DNA of 20,000 nt from an uncultured virus (IMG/VR IMGVR_UViG_3300005782_000717) (lineage: Duplodnaviria > Heunggongvirae > Uroviricota > Caudoviricetes), in the IMG/VR virus record IMGVR_UViG_3300005782_000717, one strand, 5' to 3'. This document shows, in pieces, positions 4,137 through 20,000 of the stretch. The first letter of the stretch is position 1; each line of letters starts with the position of its first letter. The notes below the pieces were generated by a model. That model saw only the letters and a program-made list of their open reading frames with translations, ran no database searches and was not told where the DNA came from. Made by a program: the position numbers and the translations under genes.

Positions 4137-4535
4137 ATGTCAACTTGCCCCTGCAAAATCGGCGCAGACCCGAACCGCATGCCAGTCCAGGCCATACAGG
4201 ACGAGCTGAACGCCCTCATTTACGAGGAGGAGGTCCAAAAGGCTTGCGACGCCAAGGATCGGGAACTTCTCTCCATCATAATCGCCCAGCCGAAAGCCCA
4301 TCACTTCGATTTCCTCCAGGGCAAGACGGAGTGGAAGGTTCGCGGCAAGTGGAAGCGGCCCGACGAGGGCTTTGACATTGAGAGGAATGTCCAGCTCGAC
4401 GTCGAATTCAAAGATGCCGCCGACGAATGCGTCGGGAAGCGTGTTATCGAGCTGCTCAAGGCCTACAACACAAAAGTGGTCGGTGAGGAGGTTCTCTACG
4501 CCCGAACCATCCCCATCGAAGAAGGTACCCTCTAG
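4137..4535 (+). CDS. Hypothetical protein, weakly resembling the DUF3574/PII-like fold
   Basis: 132 aa, the only convincing + strand gene inside the - strand array; G-x-W...E-x-N-V...EEVLY pattern. Confidence 0.7.
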   Translation: MSTCPCKIGADPNRMPVQAIQDELNALIYEEEVQKACDAKDRELLSIIIAQPKAHHFDFLQGKTEWKVRGKWKRPDEGFDIERNVQLDVEFKDAADECVGKRVIELLKAYNTKVVGEEVLYARTIPIEEGTL

Positions 4536-4750
4536 TCCTTGTGCGTCCGGGCGTATTCCTTTTTGGCCTTCTCTATTTCTGCCTCGCTCCAGCCCCTGGG
4601 GGTATCCAGCCAGCCGCCGCCTGGCAGCCCCTCTTCCTCGCAGCGGCAGACATTATGGCGCCCCCTCTGGTATGGCGGCGTGGTTATCTGTAGGTCCTTG
4701 CCGCACAGCCAGCACCGGTATTGACCCAGCCTCCTTCTTTTCGCTTTCAT
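4532..4750 (-). CDS. Small Zn-finger-like protein
   Basis: 72 aa, CWLC...HNVCRC. Confidence 0.65.
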   Translation of the reverse strand: MKAKRRRLGQYRCWLCGKDLQITTPPYQRGRHNVCRCEEEGLPGGGWLDTPRGWSEAEIEKAKKEYARTHKD

Positions 4751-5071
4751 TCAGCCTCCTTTCGCCGCCTCAACTATCTCCGCCAGCTCCGGCGAGGCGT
4801 CCTCGACCGGGGTAAACCCGCCCAGGACAAGCCCGAGCTCGTCGTAGGACCAGTAGACCTCTTGGCCCCTGTAGCCATTGCCATTGGCGGTATGCCCCTC
4901 GGTGATGACGTTGCCGAAGGCGGCCTCGAGGGCCCGGACAGTGGCTCCATTGTCACATGGGACACGCTCGCACACGCCGGTTTCCGAGTCCTTAATCTCC
5001 AGTAATCCCAGGCCACTTCCCCAGGACCCGCCGAACTGGATCAGCTTGCCTTTTTTAATTTCCACTGTCAT
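4751..5071 (-). CDS. Hypothetical protein
   Basis: 106 aa with AGGAGG RBS. Confidence 0.75.
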   Translation of the reverse strand: MTVEIKKGKLIQFGGSWGSGLGLLEIKDSETGVCERVPCDNGATVRALEAAFGNVITEGHTANGNGYRGQEVYWSYDELGLVLGGFTPVEDASPELAEIVEAAKGG

Positions 5072-5220
5072 GCCTCCTTTCCTTTCTTAAGTTCGGGTAT
5101 CTGTCTGCCCTGCTTGCTCTTCAAGTAACACCGGTTACCTTTGCGCCAGTAGCAGGACGGATAGCAATACTCCTGCCCAATCGGGCACTTGGCTACCCTA
5201 ACGCCTTTGTCATTAGCCAC
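5068..5220 (-). CDS. 50-aa Cys-rich protein not in the ORF track
   Basis: Hand-translated MANDKGVRVAKCPIGQEYCYPSCYWRKGNRCYLKSKQGRQIPELKKGKEA; GGGGTGA RBS; ATGA overlap with the next gene. Confidence 0.65.
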   Translation of the reverse strand: MANDKGVRVAKCPIGQEYCYPSCYWRKGNRCYLKSKQGRQIPELKKGKEA

Positions 5221-5301
5221 GACAATCACCCCCTTTCTTTTTATTTGAGCTTACCCGCTCAGGAGAGAGTGGGACCGGCTCCCGCCCTCGGCCTGAATTG
5301 G

Positions 5302-5607
5302 TTAGCTGCTTAATCCTGGTATATCCTTAATCTTAGGCTGCCCAAAATAGAGATCTCTCTCTATCTTCAGCCCCACGGGGCCGGTGATAGATTCCAGCTC
5401 CTTCAGCGAGAAGTAACCCCATTCCTTCTCCTGGCCATCCACTAGCCCGAAGAAGAGGTCTTCGCCGTCAAACTCCACCGCGTACCAGGTCCAGCTGGTC
5501 CAGGGTGTGAAGAACTTTGCAATTACTACCTTCTCATCTGTCGGGATTTCCTCGCCTTCATAGAGCTTCGGGAATTGCTGCCTAAGTTCTTTGGTGAGTA
5601 GTTTCAT
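5302..5607 (-). CDS. DUF2958 family protein
   Basis: KFFTPW..WTWY..E......FFGLV.G.E.E.GYFSL.EL.......IERDLYF signature; AGGAGG RBS. Confidence 0.85.
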   Translation of the reverse strand: MKLLTKELRQQFPKLYEGEEIPTDEKVVIAKFFTPWTSWTWYAVEFDGEDLFFGLVDGQEKEWGYFSLKELESITGPVGLKIERDLYFGQPKIKDIPGLSS

Positions 5608-5716
5608 TGGTTTACCTCCTTTGTTTGATAAAGCCGGTTCGAGATCGAGCCATGGTCATAAAAATAGGCCGCCTCCTTTCCAGCTTTGGGCTATCGAGAA
5701 AGCGGCCGCGGGCAAC

Positions 5717-5740
5717 AAAAAAACCTCCGGGCGGAGGTTT
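5717..5740 (-). terminator. Intrinsic terminator, the probable riboswitch expression platform
   Basis: AAACCTCC-GCCC-GGAGGTTT followed by TTTT, about 35 nt downstream of the aptamer. Confidence 0.75.
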
Positions 5741-5773
5741 ACCGCCTTCCTTTTTCACAGTCTCTGCTGTGAC

Positions 5774-5874
5774 CTATCGTTCCCCTGGCGGGGCCAGCTT
5801 TGGCACCTTCAAGAAAGACTCAAAGGTTGCCGTGCGGATCATCGGGCTGGTTCCCTAACCGCAACTCTCAATAG
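5774..5874 (-). promoter_or_regulatory. SAM-I (S-box) riboswitch aptamer
   Basis: CUAUU-GAGAG...GGG-AACCAG-CCC-GAUGA...CGGCAACC...GGUGCCAA-AG-CUGG-CCCC-GCCA-GGGG-AAC-GAUAG. P1-P4, the L2-J3/4 pseudoknot (CCAG/CUGG) and the SAM-contacting core can all be mapped. Confidence 0.88.
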
Positions 5875-5982
5875 CTCCAGGACTTATTCAATTGTTAATG
5901 TGCAATTTATATTTGGTTCCACATTTATATTACCGCTAGTAATATACTAGGAGGGATACAACACTCGGCTATAACGCATAAA

Positions 5983-8427: not shown

Positions 8428-8670
8428 TTACCCCCCTTTCCTTATAAGCTTAATTACCTTGGCGTGTATACGGGCATTGAAATTCGCCGCCTTCTCACGG
8501 AGATGGGTAACCTCGGCGCCGACGGCTTTGCAGGCCTTCTTCTCCAGATAGTTACAGGCCTCGACTCTGACGCACCTCACAGCTCCGAAGAACCGAGCCG
8601 GTGACCAGCAGTTAAGCCCCAACTCCTTCATGGTGACTATAGCGACCTTGGGTCCGATTTCTTTTGGCAT
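8428..8670 (-). CDS. Hypothetical Cys-rich protein
   Basis: ATG 8670 follows a GGGGGT RBS; CWS...C..V..C.....KAC pattern. Confidence 0.65.
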   Translation of the reverse strand: MPKEIGPKVAIVTMKELGLNCWSPARFFGAVRCVRVEACNYLEKKACKAVGAEVTHLREKAANFNARIHAKVIKLIRKGG

Positions 8671-9920
8671 TTTAACCCCCACATTATAGCTAATCCGCCA
8701 AGGCCAACTTGACATAAGTTATTTTGCTTGTGTATCACCACCATCCGGGAATTTACGCCGGTCTGGCGGAATGCCTCGGCTCCCTGGAAAGCGCCCGGGT
8801 CCAGACGGAAACTGGCGCCGCCGACCTCCCCAAGCCAGTCCCGGAACATCTGTGCTTTTACCTCGCTCCGGAAGAAGGGGCTCTCGGACATGATGGCCAC
8901 CAGGTGGCCACCGGGTTTCAGGTTGCAGTAGGCATGCCGAACATGGTTGACATCCTGAAACTTCTCGAAGGGTGGGTTCATCAGGATGCGGTCATATTCC
9001 CCGAAGTGTTTTAGGAAGTCCTCTTCCCTAACGTCAAAGCCCTTTAGCTGCAGTATCTTGCCCAGGGTATGGCTTACCTCAATAACGGTCAGCGGATTGT
9101 CCCGGTGCTCTCTCCGGATGGCCTCGGCAATATCGCCTTTGCCGGCGGATGGTTCCAGGACGGTCATGCCCGGCGCTATTTGCGCCAGCTGCAGCATCTG
9201 GTTTATTACCAGTGCCGGCGTGGGGAAGAAGCCGGGTATCTTGGTGCCGATGAGGGAGTACTCCAAGTCCCGGAGTTCCTTCTCCTTCGAGCGGTCGGGT
9301 ATGCTCCGGAGATATCCCCGGGCCGCCTCATGGGCCAACTGCCACTTCTCTTCGCTGGTGATGCCGGCTTGCATCAGGCGCAGGTCGGTATTCAGACCTG
9401 GTAATGCTCCATTGAGATAGACGCCCGGGTGGTTCTCCGCTTCCCGGACAAGTAAAATCATCGCCTTGATGCTGGCCTGGCTGGGCAGTTCCAGGAAACC
9501 GTCGGGCTTCTCTTTCTGCCGGAGCCGGACGATACACCGGCGAGCCGCCTGCAGGTCCCATTTCCCCAGGGTGACCTTCAGGACATCCCGAACCGTGGAA
9601 ATATGCAGTCCCGGCCGGTGATAGGCATTGACCAGCAAGCGCTCGACCATGCCCCTGGTGGTGATGCCCCGGAGCACCCTGGGGAGCTGGCGAGCCTCGA
9701 TATCGTCGGCCATGCCGGCCATGATTGTCTGCAACTGCTCCATGTAATCGGCGTCGCCCGCCATCGATGTCGCTATCCGGGCACGGCGGGCCGTCAGATT
9801 CTGATGGGCGATAGCAGGGTTTCGCTTGGCGTCAATCTGCCCCTGCAGGGAAGCGGCAGACTTCCGGAAAGCGGCCGCCTGCTTCTCCCGTTTCGCCCGG
9901 GCTGGGCTAATTTTCTTCAT
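8637..9920 (-). CDS. Class I SAM-dependent (N6-adenine) DNA methyltransferase with an N-terminal extension
   Basis: FFPTP (motif X), VLEPSAGKG (motif I), MNPPF (motif IV), F..TGV. The ATG at 9920 has an AAGGAGG RBS. Confidence 0.85.
   Translation of the reverse strand: MKKISPARAKREKQAAAFRKSAASLQGQIDAKRNPAIAHQNLTARRARIATSMAGDADYMEQLQTIMAGMADDIEARQLPRVLRGITTRGMVERLLVNAYHRPGLHISTVRDVLKVTLGKWDLQAARRCIVRLRQKEKPDGFLELPSQASIKAMILLVREAENHPGVYLNGALPGLNTDLRLMQAGITSEEKWQLAHEAARGYLRSIPDRSKEKELRDLEYSLIGTKIPGFFPTPALVINQMLQLAQIAPGMTVLEPSAGKGDIAEAIRREHRDNPLTVIEVSHTLGKILQLKGFDVREEDFLKHFGEYDRILMNPPFEKFQDVNHVRHAYCNLKPGGHLVAIMSESPFFRSEVKAQMFRDWLGEVGGASFRLDPGAFQGAEAFRQTGVNSRMVVIHKQNNLCQVGLGGLAIMWGLKCQKKSDPRSL
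8681..8717 (-). promoter_or_regulatory. Bipartite motif copy 1: TTATGTCAA-N11-CGGATTAGCTATAATGT
   Basis: Matches 14515..14551 at 25 of 26 arm positions with the same 11-nt spacer; contains TATAAT just upstream of an RBS. Confidence 0.65.
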
Positions 9921-9948
9921 ATTGCTATTCCTCCTTGAAATCGCTGAT

Positions 9949-10077
9949 TTAGCTTTTATTTTGGCAGTGTATGTATGCCGAGTATGTCTTGTGTAGATGT
10001 CCCTTATGGCAACGATAGGGTAATCCGGTTGGCATGGTATTCGCCTCGGTTTTCCCACTAGTAGTTACATTAGCCAT
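9949..10077 (-). CDS. 42-aa Cys/His peptide not in the ORF track
   Basis: Hand-translated MANVTTSGKTEANTMPTGLPYRCHKGHLHKTYSAYIHCQNKS; GGGGGTGA RBS. Confidence 0.55.
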   Translation of the reverse strand: MANVTTSGKTEANTMPTGLPYRCHKGHLHKTYSAYIHCQNKS

Positions 10078-15785: not shown

Positions 15786-15839
15786 CCCCTTCCCCTTACC
15801 AAGGGGAGGGGAAATTCCAAGAGGGGCTAGCGGCCCCTC
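15786..15839. repeat. REP-like double-hairpin palindromic element
   Basis: GAGGGGC-N5-GCCCCTC (15821-15839) and CCCCTTCCCCTT-ACC-AAGGGGAGGGG (15786-15811); lies where the dam fragment ends. Confidence 0.5.
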
Positions 15840-16012
15840 AGATATCTAACCTCAGCGGCTCTCATGACGTAGTGGTGCCACAACCTCGTATCGGTCTGGG
15901 AGAGCACTAGGCAAACGACTAACTTCCCCAGCTGGGCCTCGGCATAGGCTTTGCTCAGCCACTTGCCGATCTCTCGCCCATAAGGGGGGTTACTGTATGT
16001 CCGGCTCCCCCA
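15827..16012 (-). pseudogene. Internal fragment of a phage-type N6-adenine methyltransferase (Dam-like)
   Basis: W...TYSNPPYGREIGKW..KA.......VVCL....TDT..WH.YV....EVRYLRGR; lacks the N-terminal motif I half and the C-terminus. Confidence 0.8.
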
Positions 16013-16118
16013 GGGCCTCCTCTTTGGTCCTCCCCTGGGAAATGCACCCGGGGAGCACTGGTATCTCGGCGGCGAGATAGCCGTTCTCACTGGGCGTGAT
16101 GACGACAGGCAAATTCAT
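15990..16118 (-). pseudogene. Truncated HicB-family antitoxin
   Basis: MNLPVVI....NGY..AEIPVLPGCISQGRTKEEAL then abrupt loss of similarity; GGAGG RBS. Confidence 0.75.
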
Positions 16119-16140: not shown

Positions 16141-16362
16141 TTATTTCTCCACCAATTTTTGAAGGTCTTCTTTACTGAGACCACATTGTTTCAAGATGCC
16201 TAGGAGTGTTCCCGTGGCAAGTTCGTCATGGAGCGGTACCACCGTTTTATGATTTGCCTTCTGCAGGCTAACATGACTTCCTTTCTGTCGTACAACCTGA
16301 AACCCTGCCATTTGGAGCAGTTTGATAAGTCCATCCCCGGATAAGACTGGAAGTTTAACCAC
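16141..16362 (-). CDS. hicA: HicA family toxin (type II TA)
   Basis: LP.LSG..LIK.L...GF...RQKGSH.......VVP.H.EL..GTL..ILKQ. Confidence 0.9.
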   Translation of the reverse strand: MVKLPVLSGDGLIKLLQMAGFQVVRQKGSHVSLQKANHKTVVPLHDELATGTLLGILKQCGLSKEDLQKLVEK

Positions 16363-16576
16363 TAACGGTTACCTCAAGCGGATACAGGACTATCTCACCT
16401 GTATTCTTAGGAATATCCTCAGTCCCAAAACTTTCCAGGTAAAGCTCTACCGCTTCCTTAAGGTTTCCCTGTGCATCTTCAATTGTTTTACCCTGACTCA
16501 CCACTCCCAATTCCATACAATGGGCAACATACCATTTTTCTTCCTTGGTGATTATTGCTGTAAGCTTGCTAACCAT
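16355..16576 (-). CDS. hicB: HicB family antitoxin, short form
   Basis: YVA.C.ELGV.SQGKTIE.A..NLKEAVELYLE. Confidence 0.88.
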   Translation of the reverse strand: MVSKLTAIITKEEKWYVAHCMELGVVSQGKTIEDAQGNLKEAVELYLESFGTEDIPKNTGEIVLYPLEVTVSG

Positions 16577-16646
16577 ACTTTCCTTCCTATCCATCTCCCC
16601 GGTTTTACCCTGGGAAATTTACTTTCTTGCGGTCCGCATAGGCTGT

Positions 16647-16901
16647 TTAGGCTCGATAAACATCCCCTCTCGACATCACCCGATAAATGATGACCACCTT
16701 TGCGCCATCATCGACCTGGTAAAGGATTCGATAGTCCCCCACGCGAACCCTGTAGCCGCCTCTGGCGGTTAGCTTTTTGGCACTGGGCGGAAGGAAATTC
16801 TCAGCTAGACGAGCAATTGCCCTGTTAACCCTCTCCTGAGTTTGCGCTGGGAGCCTGCGAATCTGCCGATGAGCAGTGTGGCTAACTTCCAGTCGATACA
16901 C
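16647..16901 (-). CDS. relE: RelE/ParE family toxin
   Basis: Y.L......A.RQ...L.....R...I..L..N..P...KKL.....YRVRVGDYRILY.V.D.....I..V..R..VY. Confidence 0.9.
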   Translation of the reverse strand: MYRLEVSHTAHRQIRRLPAQTQERVNRAIARLAENFLPPSAKKLTARGGYRVRVGDYRILYQVDDGAKVVIIYRVMSRGDVYRA

Positions 16902-17169
16902 CGCTCTTCAGCTCTTTCGACTTCGTCAGGTGCTCCTCAAAGGGAATTGTTGCCTCCTGATCCAGCTCGGCCTGGAGCAAACCGGCAGCATCAGAAAGGT
17001 CTTCCATGCGCTCTATCATGTCGTTATACTGGTTAATCCCGACGATAACCGCTTTCACCTTACTCCCGGAAACTATAAGGTATGGCTCCCCGCCACCGGA
17101 GACTTCATCCACCAGCTGGGTGAGTTTCGGCCTAGCCTCGGCCATTCCGATTGATTTTATCCTGGCCAT
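16882..17169 (-). CDS. Phd/YefM family antitoxin
   Basis: I.M.EAR.KL..LVDEV....EP..I.......AVIV....Y..M.E..E.L; AGGAGG RBS; overlaps relE. Confidence 0.85.
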   Translation of the reverse strand: MARIKSIGMAEARPKLTQLVDEVSGGGEPYLIVSGSKVKAVIVGINQYNDMIERMEDLSDAAGLLQAELDQEATIPFEEHLTKSKELKSGVSTGS

Positions 17170-17244
17170 GCTGCCCTCCTTAATGCCTATCTTAATACAG
17201 GTATTAATCATTGTCAAGGACAGTCTTTTTCCTCCTTCAAGATT

Positions 17245-18627
17245 TCACCTCGACTTTGCCTTGGAGATGAGGCGCTCTTCTTCTTTCACCCTATCCCGGG
17301 TCATGGCGCAGTATTCCTCAACACAGTCAATAACAATAGCCTTGCGACCTAAGAAATTGGCAGCTAAAGCAAGTGTACCACTCCCCACAAATGGGTCAAG
17401 CACCACATCTCCTTCCCTACTGCCCAGGGTTATCAAGTAGGACATCAGCTTGAGCGGCTTGACTGTTGGATGCCAGTTGATTCTCGGAGTTGTTCCTGCT
17501 TTTTGGGGCACATTTCTAATATCCTGTCCTTCATCTCTACCTACTATCGGCTGAGGCACATAATCCAGTCCCCTATTCTTCTCACTCTTACTAGCCTTTG
17601 GGACTATCAGGAATGGGAAGGTCTTTTGTACTGACGCCGGCAGCTCTTTTATTTTCTCTTCCCACCACCTGTCTAAATCAAAGTAGCGCGAGAATGAGCC
17701 GGAGTCGCCTAACCCTGGTTTTGCACCTTGGTAGTATTCTTCCTTAAAGCCTCCCGAATATGCTCCTGTATGGCCAGATTTTCCCCCACTTGATTTTGTT
17801 ACCCTCCCATCATTCAGCACATCATCAGAAACTAATAGATTGGCTGGGAAACGGCCAGATTTATGCGGTGTCGACCTGAAGTCATGTTGTCCAAGACTAG
17901 CATTGAAGGTTGGTGTGCAAGTAGCATTGCTAGTCCCATAAACATCTGTTGGCCCGCCTTCCTCATACGGTATCCGTCCATCATCCAGCCAACTAATCCC
18001 CTTCTTATTTTTTAACGCTTGGTCAACAAAGGTCTTTTCACTTAACGGCTTCATTGCCACCAGGATTACCTCTACCGCAGGTTTCGGTTGCTATCCACCA
18101 TAACTGCCGTCCAGGGCTTTGGCTTGGGGAGATGTAGCTATCGTTTTATCTACCTCGATTACATTGACAGAGCGGCCAGAGTGCATCGAGCCCGATTGTA
18201 TTCCAATATCTACCTTTTCCCTGCCAATAACTTCCCTCTCAGCCCCCAGCCTCTTATCCACGGCCTTGCCAATGTTCTGCGCCTTTGGAAAGCCAGTGGC
18301 GTAGGTCCAGAAGATAGGCGTAAAATTTACCCTGAACCCCGCATCCTCAAGAGCTATAATCATCCTGCTGAGGCAATCAGCCCTGGGTATACACATCACA
18401 AAGGCAAAGGCACCGGGCTTTAATATTCTGAGACACTCAGCCCATATTCGCCTATCGGGTAATGCATTATCCCAGTCCTTGCCCATAAATCCAATACCAT
18501 AGGGCGGATCAGTTACCAATAAATCCACACTACTATCAGGCAACTGGGGTAATATCGCTCGGCAATCCCCATGATGAATTGTTACATAACTATGTTGATG
18601 ATAAGGCTGAAGTCCTTCAATTTCCAT
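17245..18627 (-). pseudogene. Beta-class N4/N6 DNA methyltransferase interrupted by a single in-frame TAG at 18093-18091
   Basis: N-half has GDC...VTDPPY; C-half has HPTVKP...VLDPFVGSGT. Both halves are in one frame, joined by GSYGG*QPKPAVEVILVAMKP. Confidence 0.85.
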
Positions 18628-18650: not shown

Positions 18651-18746
18651 TGGTAGGGACGGCAGGGCTCGAACCTGCAACCTCGGGGGAATCAGCCCCT
18701 AATACCGGTTATAAGCCGGCTGCTCTACCGATTGAGCTACGTCCCC
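18651..18746 (-). tRNA. tRNA-Ile(UAU) with a 25-nt variable region and encoded CCA
   Basis: GGGGACG/CGTCCCT acceptor, GCTC/GAGC D-stem, GCCGG-CT-TAT-AA-CCGGT anticodon arm, GCAGG-TTCGAGC-CCTGC T-arm, ACCA end. Confidence 0.9.
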
Positions 18747-18822
18747 TGGTAGCGGGGGAGGGATTCGAACCCTCGACCTCCGGCTTATGGGGCCGGTGAG
18801 CTGACCACTGCTCCACCCCGCG
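18747..18822 (-). tRNA. tRNA-Met(CAU), initiator-like
   Basis: CGCGGGG/CCCCGCT with C1:U72 mismatch, A11-U24, CCGGC-CC-CAT-AA-GCCGG, GAGGG-TTCGAAT-CCCTC, ACCA end. Confidence 0.92.
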
Positions 18823-19181: not shown

Positions 19182-20000
19182 CTATCCTCTCCAGAATGGC
19201 AGGAAGGGATGGTTTTCGTAGACCTTCTCGTCGATCTTCAGTGGATCCAGAGTCACGTAAGCCAGAGCCATGTCCCCGGTGAGCTTCCATCTTAAAAAAA
19301 TCTTGCAGTAGATGTAGTTCCACTGGACGAGGACGGTATCCAGCGCCCTTCTGAAGGAGTGCCAGCCTGCACTATCCTGATGCTCAATACCTGCCTTTAT
19401 CTCAATGGACCGGTAGAGGTTGGACATGGTGGCGAGGGAATATGGCTTGGTAAAGTCATGCCCCTTGAGGTACGGAATAATCTCTGGCGCCAGGAGCTGG
19501 TGGCGCTCGATGCCCCCCTTACATGTCAGGACGTAAAGCCGTCCCGTCTCGTAGTCGATATGCTCCTCCCCAATCCTCACCAGCTCCTCCCGGCGGAGCC
19601 CCAGGGTTGTGGAGAGGGCAAGGAAGGCGGTCTCATCCGAGGCAAGTTTGCCCTCCTTGGCCGCGTCGACCATTATGCTCACCTGCTCAAGCTCCAGTGT
19701 GGGTTTTACGACATCCGAGGGCTGGACCTTCGGCGCTCCCCTCTTTCCCATCAACCAGTGCACGCCGGCGGCGTCAAACACACGCTTCGTGATGGTATAA
19801 ATCAGCCTTTGTGTTCCCTTGGAGTACCCCTCCTTGTCCAGCTTCTTCATGAAGCGGATGACCAGAGACCTGTCCCACTCCTCCGACCGGCCAGCGAAAT
19901 CGAGGAACTTTTTGGCGTAGGCAAGGCGGCTGGCCCGGGTATGCTCGCTGCTCTGCCACAGATCCTCATCGAACCTTTTTAGAATCTCATCTCTATTCAC
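19182..20000 (-). CDS. Tyrosine recombinase/integrase (start at the window edge)
   Basis: GLRREEL (R), TCKGG (K), WHSFRR (HxxR), LRW (W in place of the second His), ALAYV (catalytic Y). Confidence 0.9.
   Translation of the reverse strand: MNRDEILKRFDEDLWQSSEHTRASRLAYAKKFLDFAGRSEEWDRSLVIRFMKKLDKEGYSKGTQRLIYTITKRVFDAAGVHWLMGKRGAPKVQPSDVVKPTLELEQVSIMVDAAKEGKLASDETAFLALSTTLGLRREELVRIGEEHIDYETGRLYVLTCKGGIERHQLLAPEIIPYLKGHDFTKPYSLATMSNLYRSIEIKAGIEHQDSAGWHSFRRALDTVLVQWNYIYCKIFLRWKLTGDMALAYVTLDPLKIDEKVYENHPFLPFWRG

Follow-up and report, generated by a model that had tools for sequence, protein, structure and literature searches.

Results

The SAM-I aptamer

This study concerns the leader RNA of a small operon in a 20,000-nucleotide stretch of DNA, here called the window, that is recorded in IMG/VR as an uncultured virus (IMGVR_UViG_3300005782_000717). 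An original prediction, made from the letters of this DNA, had described a SAM-I riboswitch, whose ligand is S-adenosylmethionine (SAM), followed on the minus strand by a terminator, a DUF2958 gene and three coupled small genes, and had proposed that these genes are turned off when SAM is high. From 5' to 3', the locus consists of a conserved box, the aptamer, a hairpin, a purine box, terminator 1, terminator 2, a Shine-Dalgarno sequence, and DUF2958 (Table 1).

The Rfam model RF00162 (SAM-I) matched the aptamer with 53.5 bits against a gathering cut-off of 44.4 (E 5.2e-10, model positions 1–108); its bounds are those in Table 1, compared with 5874–5774 as first read. All of the strongly conserved core letters of RF00162 are present. 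In an alignment of 11 related aptamers, the four-way junction P1–P4 was paired in 94.6% of 407 cells; P2, P3, and P4 were 89–100% paired, and P1, which has a conserved G-G mismatch, was 82% paired. The departures from the canonical fold listed in the original prediction were all recovered. The pseudoknot PK-1 reads CCAG/CUGG in the window versus CUGG/CCAG in most relatives; it was 100% paired, with both partners replaced at two of the four pairs. Contigs from other samples (lake, soil, subsurface) have CUGG/CCAG as the majority form, of which the window's is a compensated minority form, and in the metagenome contigs the four letters at 5848/5849 and 5795/5796 vary together. The J3/4-J4/1 pair is G-C in 11 of 11 aptamers, and the innermost P1 pair, U-G in the window, is C-G in 9 of the 11. 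The non-bulged strand of the kink-turn (k-turn) reads UUA in the window versus gGA in the Rfam consensus; the bulged strand retains GAUGA. Because pairing was at 94.6% and the pseudoknot was always paired despite two pairs changing on both sides, we judge from the alignment that the aptamer is under selection within the DUF2958-linked lineage, where 11 of 11 copies exceed the Rfam cut-off. By these comparisons the window RNA is a genuine full-length SAM-I-type aptamer, and it is predicted to sense SAM.

Hairpin, terminators, and leader box

Directly 3' of P1 is a hairpin that was 91.2% paired in an alignment of 21 leaders, with changes on both sides at 4 of its 5 pairs (16 cells) and no match in 500 shuffles, although that alignment was fitted to the hairpin, which favors its pairing score. 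In 9 leaders aligned with MAFFT, 3 of 7 pairs changed on both sides, and the hairpin and the two terminators together were 92% paired. A terminator scan recovered the terminator of the original prediction, placing it at 5740–5721 (−); its stem has 8 pairs, of which 4 are G-C, and its loop of 4 bases is closed ahead of TTTTGTTGCC; the region of this terminator 1 contained 4 terminator-like sites versus 2.2 ± 1.5 in shuffles. Its stem was 100% paired in 9 leaders, with hairpin energies of −10.6 to −12.4 kcal/mol. The long hairpin of terminator 2, which was not part of the original prediction, was kept in 9 leaders at −22.1 to −28.6 kcal/mol (−24.2 kcal/mol in the window). The hairpin and purine box behind P1, and the likeness to metK leaders described below, were likewise absent from that prediction. 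Both terminators are G+C-rich hairpins followed by a U-tract, fitting the intrinsic (Rho-independent) type. In two loci (L054 and L057) an additional open reading frame (ORF) stands ahead of DUF2958. One RNA run gave a contig piece over 5824–5876 with 6 differences, and such contigs cannot show transcript ends.

A box resembling the leader box CATTAACAATTGAATAAG, namely AACAACNGAA, is present in metK leaders and in others described below. The window's box is partly palindromic (TTAACAATTGAATAA), and a looser form of this is common to the metK leaders; the box might serve as an operator for a protein or belong to the RNA. Just upstream of the leader, the relatives have TTGACA-17-TATAAT-like promoters.

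Two sets of overlapping reading frames were considered and rejected. The candidate leader peptides (a 15-codon ATG frame at 5612–5659 and a frame through terminator 2) have an unconserved start, and insertions or deletions of 2–4 bases break the frames in a related locus (L001). The antisense ORFs at 5591–5950 and 5607–5858 (+) were considered spurious for the same reason.

Recurrence of the riboswitch upstream of DUF2958

The survey included 171 DUF2958 loci: species genomes contributed 47, viral contigs 44, and metagenomes 80, these last being the best of 317. Rfam models were run at gathering thresholds on the 47 genome loci and the 20 closest metagenome loci; L068–L171 were covered by R1, a narrow covariance model made from 11 aptamers of this lineage, and by a core pattern. 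The same aptamer was found upstream on the same strand in 10 of the 171 loci, so the linkage first seen in the window is not limited to this genome. One carrier was among the 47 genome loci (L001, in a Dehalococcoidia metagenome-assembled genome, or MAG, with DUF2958 78% identical), and 9 of the 20 closest metagenome loci had RF00162 upstream on the same strand. An eleventh locus, L059, is cut off within the leader by the end of its contig. R1 detected no additional aptamer in the 160 remaining loci, and a loose S-box core pattern applied to all 171 gave 8 matches, all among the 10 carriers. An unrelated SAM-I aptamer in L068–L171 could be missed by R1, but not easily by the core pattern.

The DUF2958 proteins of all carriers are at least 73% identical to that of the window. 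Equally close relatives (L049, L050, L052, and L053) lie behind other genes without the leader. Because the carriers are all this similar while equally close loci lack the leader, the linkage is, as judged from these sequences, a trait of one sub-lineage and not of the DUF2958 family. An aptamer pattern scan of viral contigs gave no matches, and the 44 viral DUF2958 loci were negative with R1; a 17-base purine-box motif occurred in 5 viral loci and was taken as likely chance. Within the metagenome contigs the summed depth of the aptamer was many times that of DUF2958, and the leader lineage was abundant in several habitats. Thus the presence of a SAM-I aptamer and terminator before DUF2958 on a mobile element was borne out, whereas the idea of a switch specific to DUF2958 was not, because the same leader precedes other mobile-element genes.

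Likeness to metK leaders

The R1 model was used to search 151 genomes of the class Dehalococcoidia, to which the L001 genome belongs, and 47 had SAM-I-like matches. Most matches scored no more than 51 bits and were the ordinary SAM-I leaders of the class; a top tier scored 79–93 bits. Two top-tier leaders (79–82 bits; L182 and L183) precede metK, the gene for SAM synthetase. The L182 gene has three S-AdoMet synthetase domains in Pfam, and the L183 gene was called by eye from its translation. Both leaders have their parts in the same order as the window: promoter, AACAACNGAA box, aptamer, hairpin, purine box, terminator 1, and terminator 2. The inner UUGAUAG segment of terminator 2 is also common to the metK leaders and the window-type leaders.

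A set of 28 genomes from one order yielded six more leaders. RF00162 recognized each of the ten extra leaders with E ≤1.9e-6, and 8 of the 10 reached the cut-off. The remaining top-tier leaders and the six more precede mobile-element-type genes without a family. These encode a 317–327-amino-acid (aa) cysteine (Cys)-rich protein (with a homologue of the 106-aa window protein encoded behind it), a 99–112-aa protein, a 250-aa protein, or a 79–94-aa protein that twice adjoins a ResIII/HSDR_N or N6_N4 methylase gene.

Because a metK leader must shut off at high SAM and the whole platform is shared, the window switch is most likely also off at high SAM. The sign given in the original prediction is thus backed by the close likeness of the leader to the leaders of two metK genes. 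It is most likely, from the same likeness, that the window leader was captured from a host metK leader. The MAG holding L001 had no other RF00162 match, so no donor is shown in that genome.

Several of these relatives differ in layout. The aptamers of L182 (1501–1596) and L203–L208 are P4-less (91–96 bases) and score 41.9–52.5 bits with RF00162, at or near the cut-off; with their hairpin and P3-loop complement they have a SAM-IV-like layout with a SAM-I-type k-turn. Terminator 2 has been partly lost in L205, L206, and L208, and L200 has a weakened P1 (46.9 bits).

In L206 and L208 (leader at 1501, small ORF at about 1700–1950, next gene from about 2110) the small ORF encodes a 79–85-aa protein, MTWADAVAS...DGLLA.RKL.GDPDIIATDD, and the next gene is a ResIII, HSDR_N restriction gene in L206 and an N6_N4 methylase in L208. 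This arrangement may link SAM sensing with restriction-modification. Another homologue of the 106-aa protein (P0022, 133 aa) has an N-terminal extension that reads like a translated terminator-2 region; therefore a leader seems to lie directly ahead of its gene, with the gene call running through the terminator.

Candidate switching pairings

Three pairings were found that could connect the aptamer with the terminators. In the first, the P1 5' strand plus J1/2 (5865–5875) can pair with the inner part of terminator 2's 5' arm (5690–5700). Across 18 leaders this helix was paired in 92.3% of 196 cells, and 4 of its 11 pairs (11 cells) changed on both sides; slid controls were 24–42% paired, and none of 500 shuffles reached the observed pairing or covariation score. 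In the 19 leaders that have the arm, the energy of the duplex ranges from −12.8 to −22.7 kcal/mol, versus −5.9 to −10.4 for P1 in the 9 measured.

The second involves terminator 1. The 3' part of the purine box, GGCGG (5742–5746), is complementary to CCGCC (5730–5734), which comprises the end of the terminator's 5' arm and its loop. This hairpin was present in the minimum-energy folds of 10 of 10 transcripts truncated before the 3' arm of terminator 1, and its counterparts in other lineages (GGCAG/CUGCC, GACGG/CCGUC, and AAGGAGG/CCUCCUU) retain pairing.

In the third, the 5' part of the purine box, AAGGAAGGC (5744–5752), is complementary to the P3 apical loop, GUCUUUCUU (5811–5819); the AAGGAAGGC segment overlaps the antiterminator segment 5742–5746 by three bases. 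The best duplex of the inner P3 segment with the region downstream of the aptamer was the purine box in 20 of 21 leaders. When the P3 segment was shuffled by mononucleotides, no more than 11 of 200 shuffles were as good in 20 of 21 leaders (z −1.8 to −4.0), L051 being the exception with 76 of 200. No such purine box was found in 16 ordinary SAM-I leaders of the same class.

Three other arrangements were rejected. For a classical antiterminator on the P1 3' strand, the window allows only AGGU/ACCU plus CG/CG, and it was not adopted for the window; the energy of such a pairing in L057 and L065 was −14.7 and −15.3 kcal/mol. The purine box could also form 9 pairs in the window with the outer part of terminator 2's 5' arm, but this pairing contains an A-C mismatch in 8 of 8 other leaders. 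A SAM-on reading, with the purine box sequestered in the free state, was abandoned when this leader turned up in front of metK.

The regulated genes and their proteins

The identification of the first gene as DUF2958 was secure: PF11171 matched residues 3–89 with E 1.7e-16 and 60.9 bits against a cut-off of 21. Its AlphaFold2 model (predicted local distance difference test score, pLDDT, 95.9) has an N-terminal helix and a small beta-barrel, and F33, W41, G54, E62, G64, F66, and an ERD motif are invariant in 43 DUF2958 sequences. Foldseek gave no Protein Data Bank (PDB) match at E ≤1e-3, a PDB sequence search was empty, and a wide structural search returned only generic Sm/SH3-like barrels (best Z 4.1). 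None of these comparisons tied DUF2958 to anti-restriction or to SAM binding or cleavage. Relatives occur in 91 plasmid and 12 phage records. In the Prevotella nigrescens plasmid NZ_CP082843.1, DUF2958 is an internal domain (about residues 440–538) of a 2094-aa "helicase-related protein" (L178, 4684–10968), which adjoins topB and DUF4099.

All three small genes first described behind DUF2958 are present; conservation in several relatives held for the last two, and did not for the 53-aa ORF. The 106-aa protein has 262 homologues, none of them named, and in a protein atlas it scored no more than 0.83 against clusters without names. Its model (pLDDT 81.2) is weakly like an oligonucleotide/oligosaccharide-binding (OB) fold, the best Foldseek match being PrgE of plasmid pCF10 (E 6.9e-3, template modeling (TM) score 0.42). 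The operon proteins had no Pfam, PHROGs, NCBIfam, or PADLOC match except DUF2958 itself (Pfam). Profile scans gave no likeness to the ArdA, Ocr, Lar, or KlcA-type families, and the folds resembled only generic small barrels and OB folds. The regulated proteins look like small nucleic-acid- or zinc-binding proteins such as mobile elements employ at an early stage.

A Cys-rich module without a family, C.C/NCW-LPARFLGG-C..Y.C.Y..K..C.A, occurs in three settings. In the window it is a 95-aa ORF at 8428–8715 (−) that adjoins the large methyltransferase; in related riboswitch operons (L048, 2032–2172; L056, 1737–1877) it is an ORF that follows the 106-aa gene; and in L200 (512–1465) it makes up the N-terminus of the 317-aa protein encoded first after the leader.

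The mobile-element setting

The whole window has three Rfam matches above the curated cut-offs, two transfer RNAs (tRNAs) and RF00162. Scans with Rfam, Pfam, and PHROGs showed an element setting of integrase, tRNA, methyltransferase, and toxin-antitoxin genes (Table 1). The three methyltransferase genes or pieces reported on the element in the original prediction were all located, the last of them as two ORFs: that at 18091–18627 matches N6_N4 profile positions 1–89, and that at 17245–18060 matches positions 144–219, which fits either a broken gene or a two-part enzyme. The 87-aa Dam-like ORF is, from its partial profile match, probably a remnant. An AAA protein and a DUF4314 protein are also encoded, as is a weak Lar-like ORF (PF14354, 19 bits, below the cut-off of 28.6). 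Profile scans of the window ORFs showed no phage structural genes and no conjugation genes. The best DNA matches to the window were marine-sediment metagenomes.

The methyltransferase domain of the 473-aa protein matches pieces of giant phage and plasmid proteins, among them phrog_18947 (E 4e-86) and phrog_15406, "DNA methyltransferase" (2789 profile positions), and it also matches PADLOC mad2. The tRNA-Ile(UAU) carries about 21 extra bases in its variable region, which is unusual for an Ile tRNA.

Table 1 Features of the leader, the regulated unit, and the element in the window
Feature	Position	Strand	Remarks
Conserved 5' leader box CATTAACAATTGAATAAG	5883–5900	−	Between promoter region and P1; kept in 9 leaders aligned
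SAM-I aptamer (P1–P4, k-turn, pseudoknot PK-1)	5771–5877	−	Rfam RF00162
Pseudoknot PK-1 (P2 loop with J3/4)	5847–5850 with 5794–5797	−	
P4	5782–5793	−	
Hairpin CACAG/CUGUG, directly 3' of P1	5755–5772	−	Starts in last bases of P1
Purine box GAAAAAGGAAGGCGG	5742–5756	−	Nearly invariant among leaders
Terminator 1	5711–5740	−	Stem 5733–5740 with 5721–5728, loop GCCC, then U-tract
Terminator 2	5660–5707	−	Long hairpin 5667–5707, then UAUUUUU
DUF2958 gene, 101 aa	5302–5607	−	PF11171; Shine-Dalgarno GGAGG at 5615–5619
53-aa Cys-rich ORF, GTG start	5068–5229	−	Found in 1 related locus (L048); weakly supported as a gene
106-aa protein (P0002)	4751–5071	−	4-base overlap with preceding gene; behind DUF2958 in 7 loci that carry the leader or end within it
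72-aa Cys-rich protein (P0003), last of unit	4532–4750	−	Abuts preceding gene; full length in 5 related loci
Convergent 132-aa gene (P0005), closes unit	4137–4535	+	81–86% identical, full length, in 4 related loci
473-aa protein, C-terminal methyltransferase domain	8637–10058	−	
87-aa Dam methylase piece	15827–16090	−	Middle of profile only (57–120 of 169), below cut-off
HicA/HicB-like toxin-antitoxin pair	16141–16594	−	
ParE/Phd toxin-antitoxin pair	16647–17217	−	Side by side with HicA/HicB-like pair
N6_N4 DNA methylase in two ORFs	17245–18627	−	Profile matches
tRNA-Met(CAU) and 96-base tRNA-Ile(UAU), abutting	18651–18822	−	Beside integrase
Tyrosine integrase, partial	19182–20000		Adjoins two tRNA genes

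Discussion

Proposed switching mechanism

The explanation that we prefer, and hold as a whole with good confidence, is that the window carries an integrative mobile element with a SAM-responsive leader. We consider it likely, from the comparisons above, that this leader halts a small operon (DUF2958, the 53-aa ORF, the 106-aa OB-like protein, and the 72-aa Cys-rich protein) when SAM is plentiful and allows its transcription when SAM is scarce. In the SAM-bound state, the purine box would dock on the P3 loop, as does PK-2 of SAM-IV, and P1 would be locked. With their 5' arms then out of reach of the purine box (terminator 1) and of the P1 5' strand (terminator 2), both terminators would form. 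Without SAM, the purine box would form a small antiterminator with terminator 1; once polymerase had passed that point, the freed P1 5' strand would form a helix of 9–11 bp with the arm of terminator 2, and the operon would be read. The off logic has a sound basis in homology; for the details of switching and for the biological role we offer hypotheses.

Several observations weigh against parts of this model. No sigma-70-like promoter was recognized by scan in the window itself, and the k-turn strand has a U in place of the usual G. L051 lacks terminator 2 and L064 lacks both terminators; therefore, the design of the leader is not fixed. The candidate antiterminator 1 has only 5 bp in the window versus the 8 bp of the terminator, it is absent in L203, and the minimum-energy folds always show the terminated form. 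The main change in the helix between the P1 5' strand and terminator 2, from G-C to A-U, tracks one clade and may be a single event. For the purine box and the P3 loop, column covariation was not significant (88.9% paired; slid controls 58–80%; 22 of 500 shuffles reached the score). Simply by composition, a run of purines will readily pair with a loop of pyrimidines.

Relation to known SAM riboswitches

The leader resembles the SAM-I (S-box) leaders of metK, metE, and metI in its four-way junction P1–P4, k-turn, PK-1, core, and intrinsic terminator. It differs from them in its downstream genes, which are DUF2958 and small proteins without a family rather than methionine, cysteine, or SAM genes (its sister leaders precede metK), and in having two terminators in series. 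In classical S-box leaders the switching strand is the P1 3' strand, whereas here the candidates are the P1 5' strand and a purine box that follows an extra hairpin.

The hairpin after P1 and the tail complementary to the P3 loop give the P5/PK-2 topology of SAM-IV (RF00634), as presented in a cryo-electron microscopy report (PMC6890682). The relatives L182 and L203–L208 are also like SAM-IV in being without P4; unlike SAM-IV, the window keeps P4 and a SAM-I-like six-letter k-turn region. The SAM-IV model matched the P4-less metK leader through the hairpin with 30.9 bits versus a cut-off of 38, and another relative with 21.6 bits; these scores are those of relatives only, since in the window overlapping matches of one clan were merged under RF00162. 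The SAM-I/IV variant RF01725 gave no match at E ≤1 in 5 genomes with relatives of the leader. Our literature searches, which were narrow, found no SAM-I aptamer with both P4 and PK-2.

A fuller account, which we put forward tentatively and rate at somewhat less than an even chance, is that elements of Dehalococcoidia-like sediment bacteria put a host metK leader to use in sensing SAM, so as to govern a cassette of small and probably nucleic-acid-binding proteins with DUF2958 among them, and that this leader is an intermediate of SAM-I and SAM-IV (P4 + P5 + PK-2) with two SAM-dependent checkpoints. Antitermination at terminator 1 would be a second task of the PK-2 3' strand, and at terminator 2 it would fall to the P1 5' strand.

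What the switch may be for

The metK promoter and leader might have been taken only as a promoter, with SAM control incidental or decaying. Eroded copies exist (L064 with no terminator, L051 with one, L205, L206, and L208 with partial terminator 2, and L200 with weak P1), and the window has no clear promoter. On the other side, the aptamer helices, pseudoknot, hairpin, and terminators have been kept by compensatory changes across 11 to 21 copies, every DUF2958-linked copy exceeds the Rfam cut-off, and the lineage is abundant in several habitats; we regard such a relic as quite unlikely. A change of ligand (for example, to S-adenosylhomocysteine) or of sign, to on with SAM, is the least probable of the alternatives, and we give it very little weight. 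The U for G in the k-turn, the J3/4-J4/1 G-C for U-A, the P1 G-G mismatch, and the lack of a classical antiterminator using the P1 3' strand could be read in its favor; however, all of the strongly conserved core letters of RF00162 are present. Moreover, the G-G mismatch is also found in the metK leader L182 (L183 has U-G there), the J3/4-J4/1 G-C is also found in the P4-keeping metK leader L183, and metK must be SAM-repressed.

If the leader does turn the operon on at low SAM, the element may be using it to sense the state of its host. SAM would then be a read-out of methionine or one-carbon starvation, timing small DNA- or RNA-binding proteins for maintenance, replication, or escape, with no role in restriction. 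The leader is of metK type, tuned to host SAM homeostasis; the regulated proteins are small, one being OB-fold-like and others Cys-rich; and phage riboswitches are proposed to time phage functions, as with the glutamine riboswitch of Melnitz (PMC9004378). The OB-fold match is weak, however, and profile scans showed no excision, replication, or lysis gene in the regulated unit; we rate this role as less likely than not.

The original prediction favored a back-up anti-restriction module, switched on when low SAM leaves the element's methyltransferases unable to protect its DNA. The three methyltransferase genes or pieces and the weak Lar-like ORF in the window agree with this idea, as do the restriction and methylase genes next to the small regulated gene in L206 and L208, the DUF2958 domain within the helicase-related Prevotella plasmid protein, and the wide occurrence of DUF2958 on plasmids and phages. 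Yet in the profile scans no operon protein resembled a known anti-restriction family, the DUF2958 fold is uninformative, and several unrelated genes of no known family also follow the same leader. Type I and type III restriction enzymes need SAM themselves, so low SAM lowers the very threat that such a module would counter. We consider an anti-restriction role unlikely, less so than a relic but more so than a sensor of host state.

Significance

A review states that riboswitches are rarely found in phage genomes, and gives cyclic di-GMP-I riboswitches in C. difficile prophages and glutamine riboswitches in cyanophages as cases (PMC5473149). A glutamine riboswitch is also described in phage Melnitz (PMC9004378), and SAM-IV was counted in 16 Mycolicibacterium prophages without further study (PMC8190616). 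The window leader is like these phage and prophage riboswitches in being a metabolite-sensing RNA ahead of an element's own genes. It is unlike them in its class, SAM-I, in its host group of Dehalococcoidia-like sediment bacteria, and in having a source traceable to a host metK leader. Our literature searches found nothing on a SAM riboswitch with anti-restriction, on SAM riboswitches of Dehalococcoidia, or on SAM-I with integrative and conjugative elements beyond the Mycolicibacterium prophage count.

Within PF11171 the window gene is a clear member, and among the 171 loci only its sub-clade has the leader. A common riboswitch class recurs on an element family before non-metabolic genes, and its probable source, a host metK leader, can be named. 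If the contact between the purine box and the P3 loop and the hairpin are real, SAM-I and SAM-IV architectures would be linked in one molecule; if the switching model is true, the leader would be a two-terminator expression platform that uses strands other than the classical P1 3' strand. For DUF2958, the 106-aa family with its 262 members, and the other small proteins, the leader provides a first regulatory clue, namely that they would be made at low SAM.

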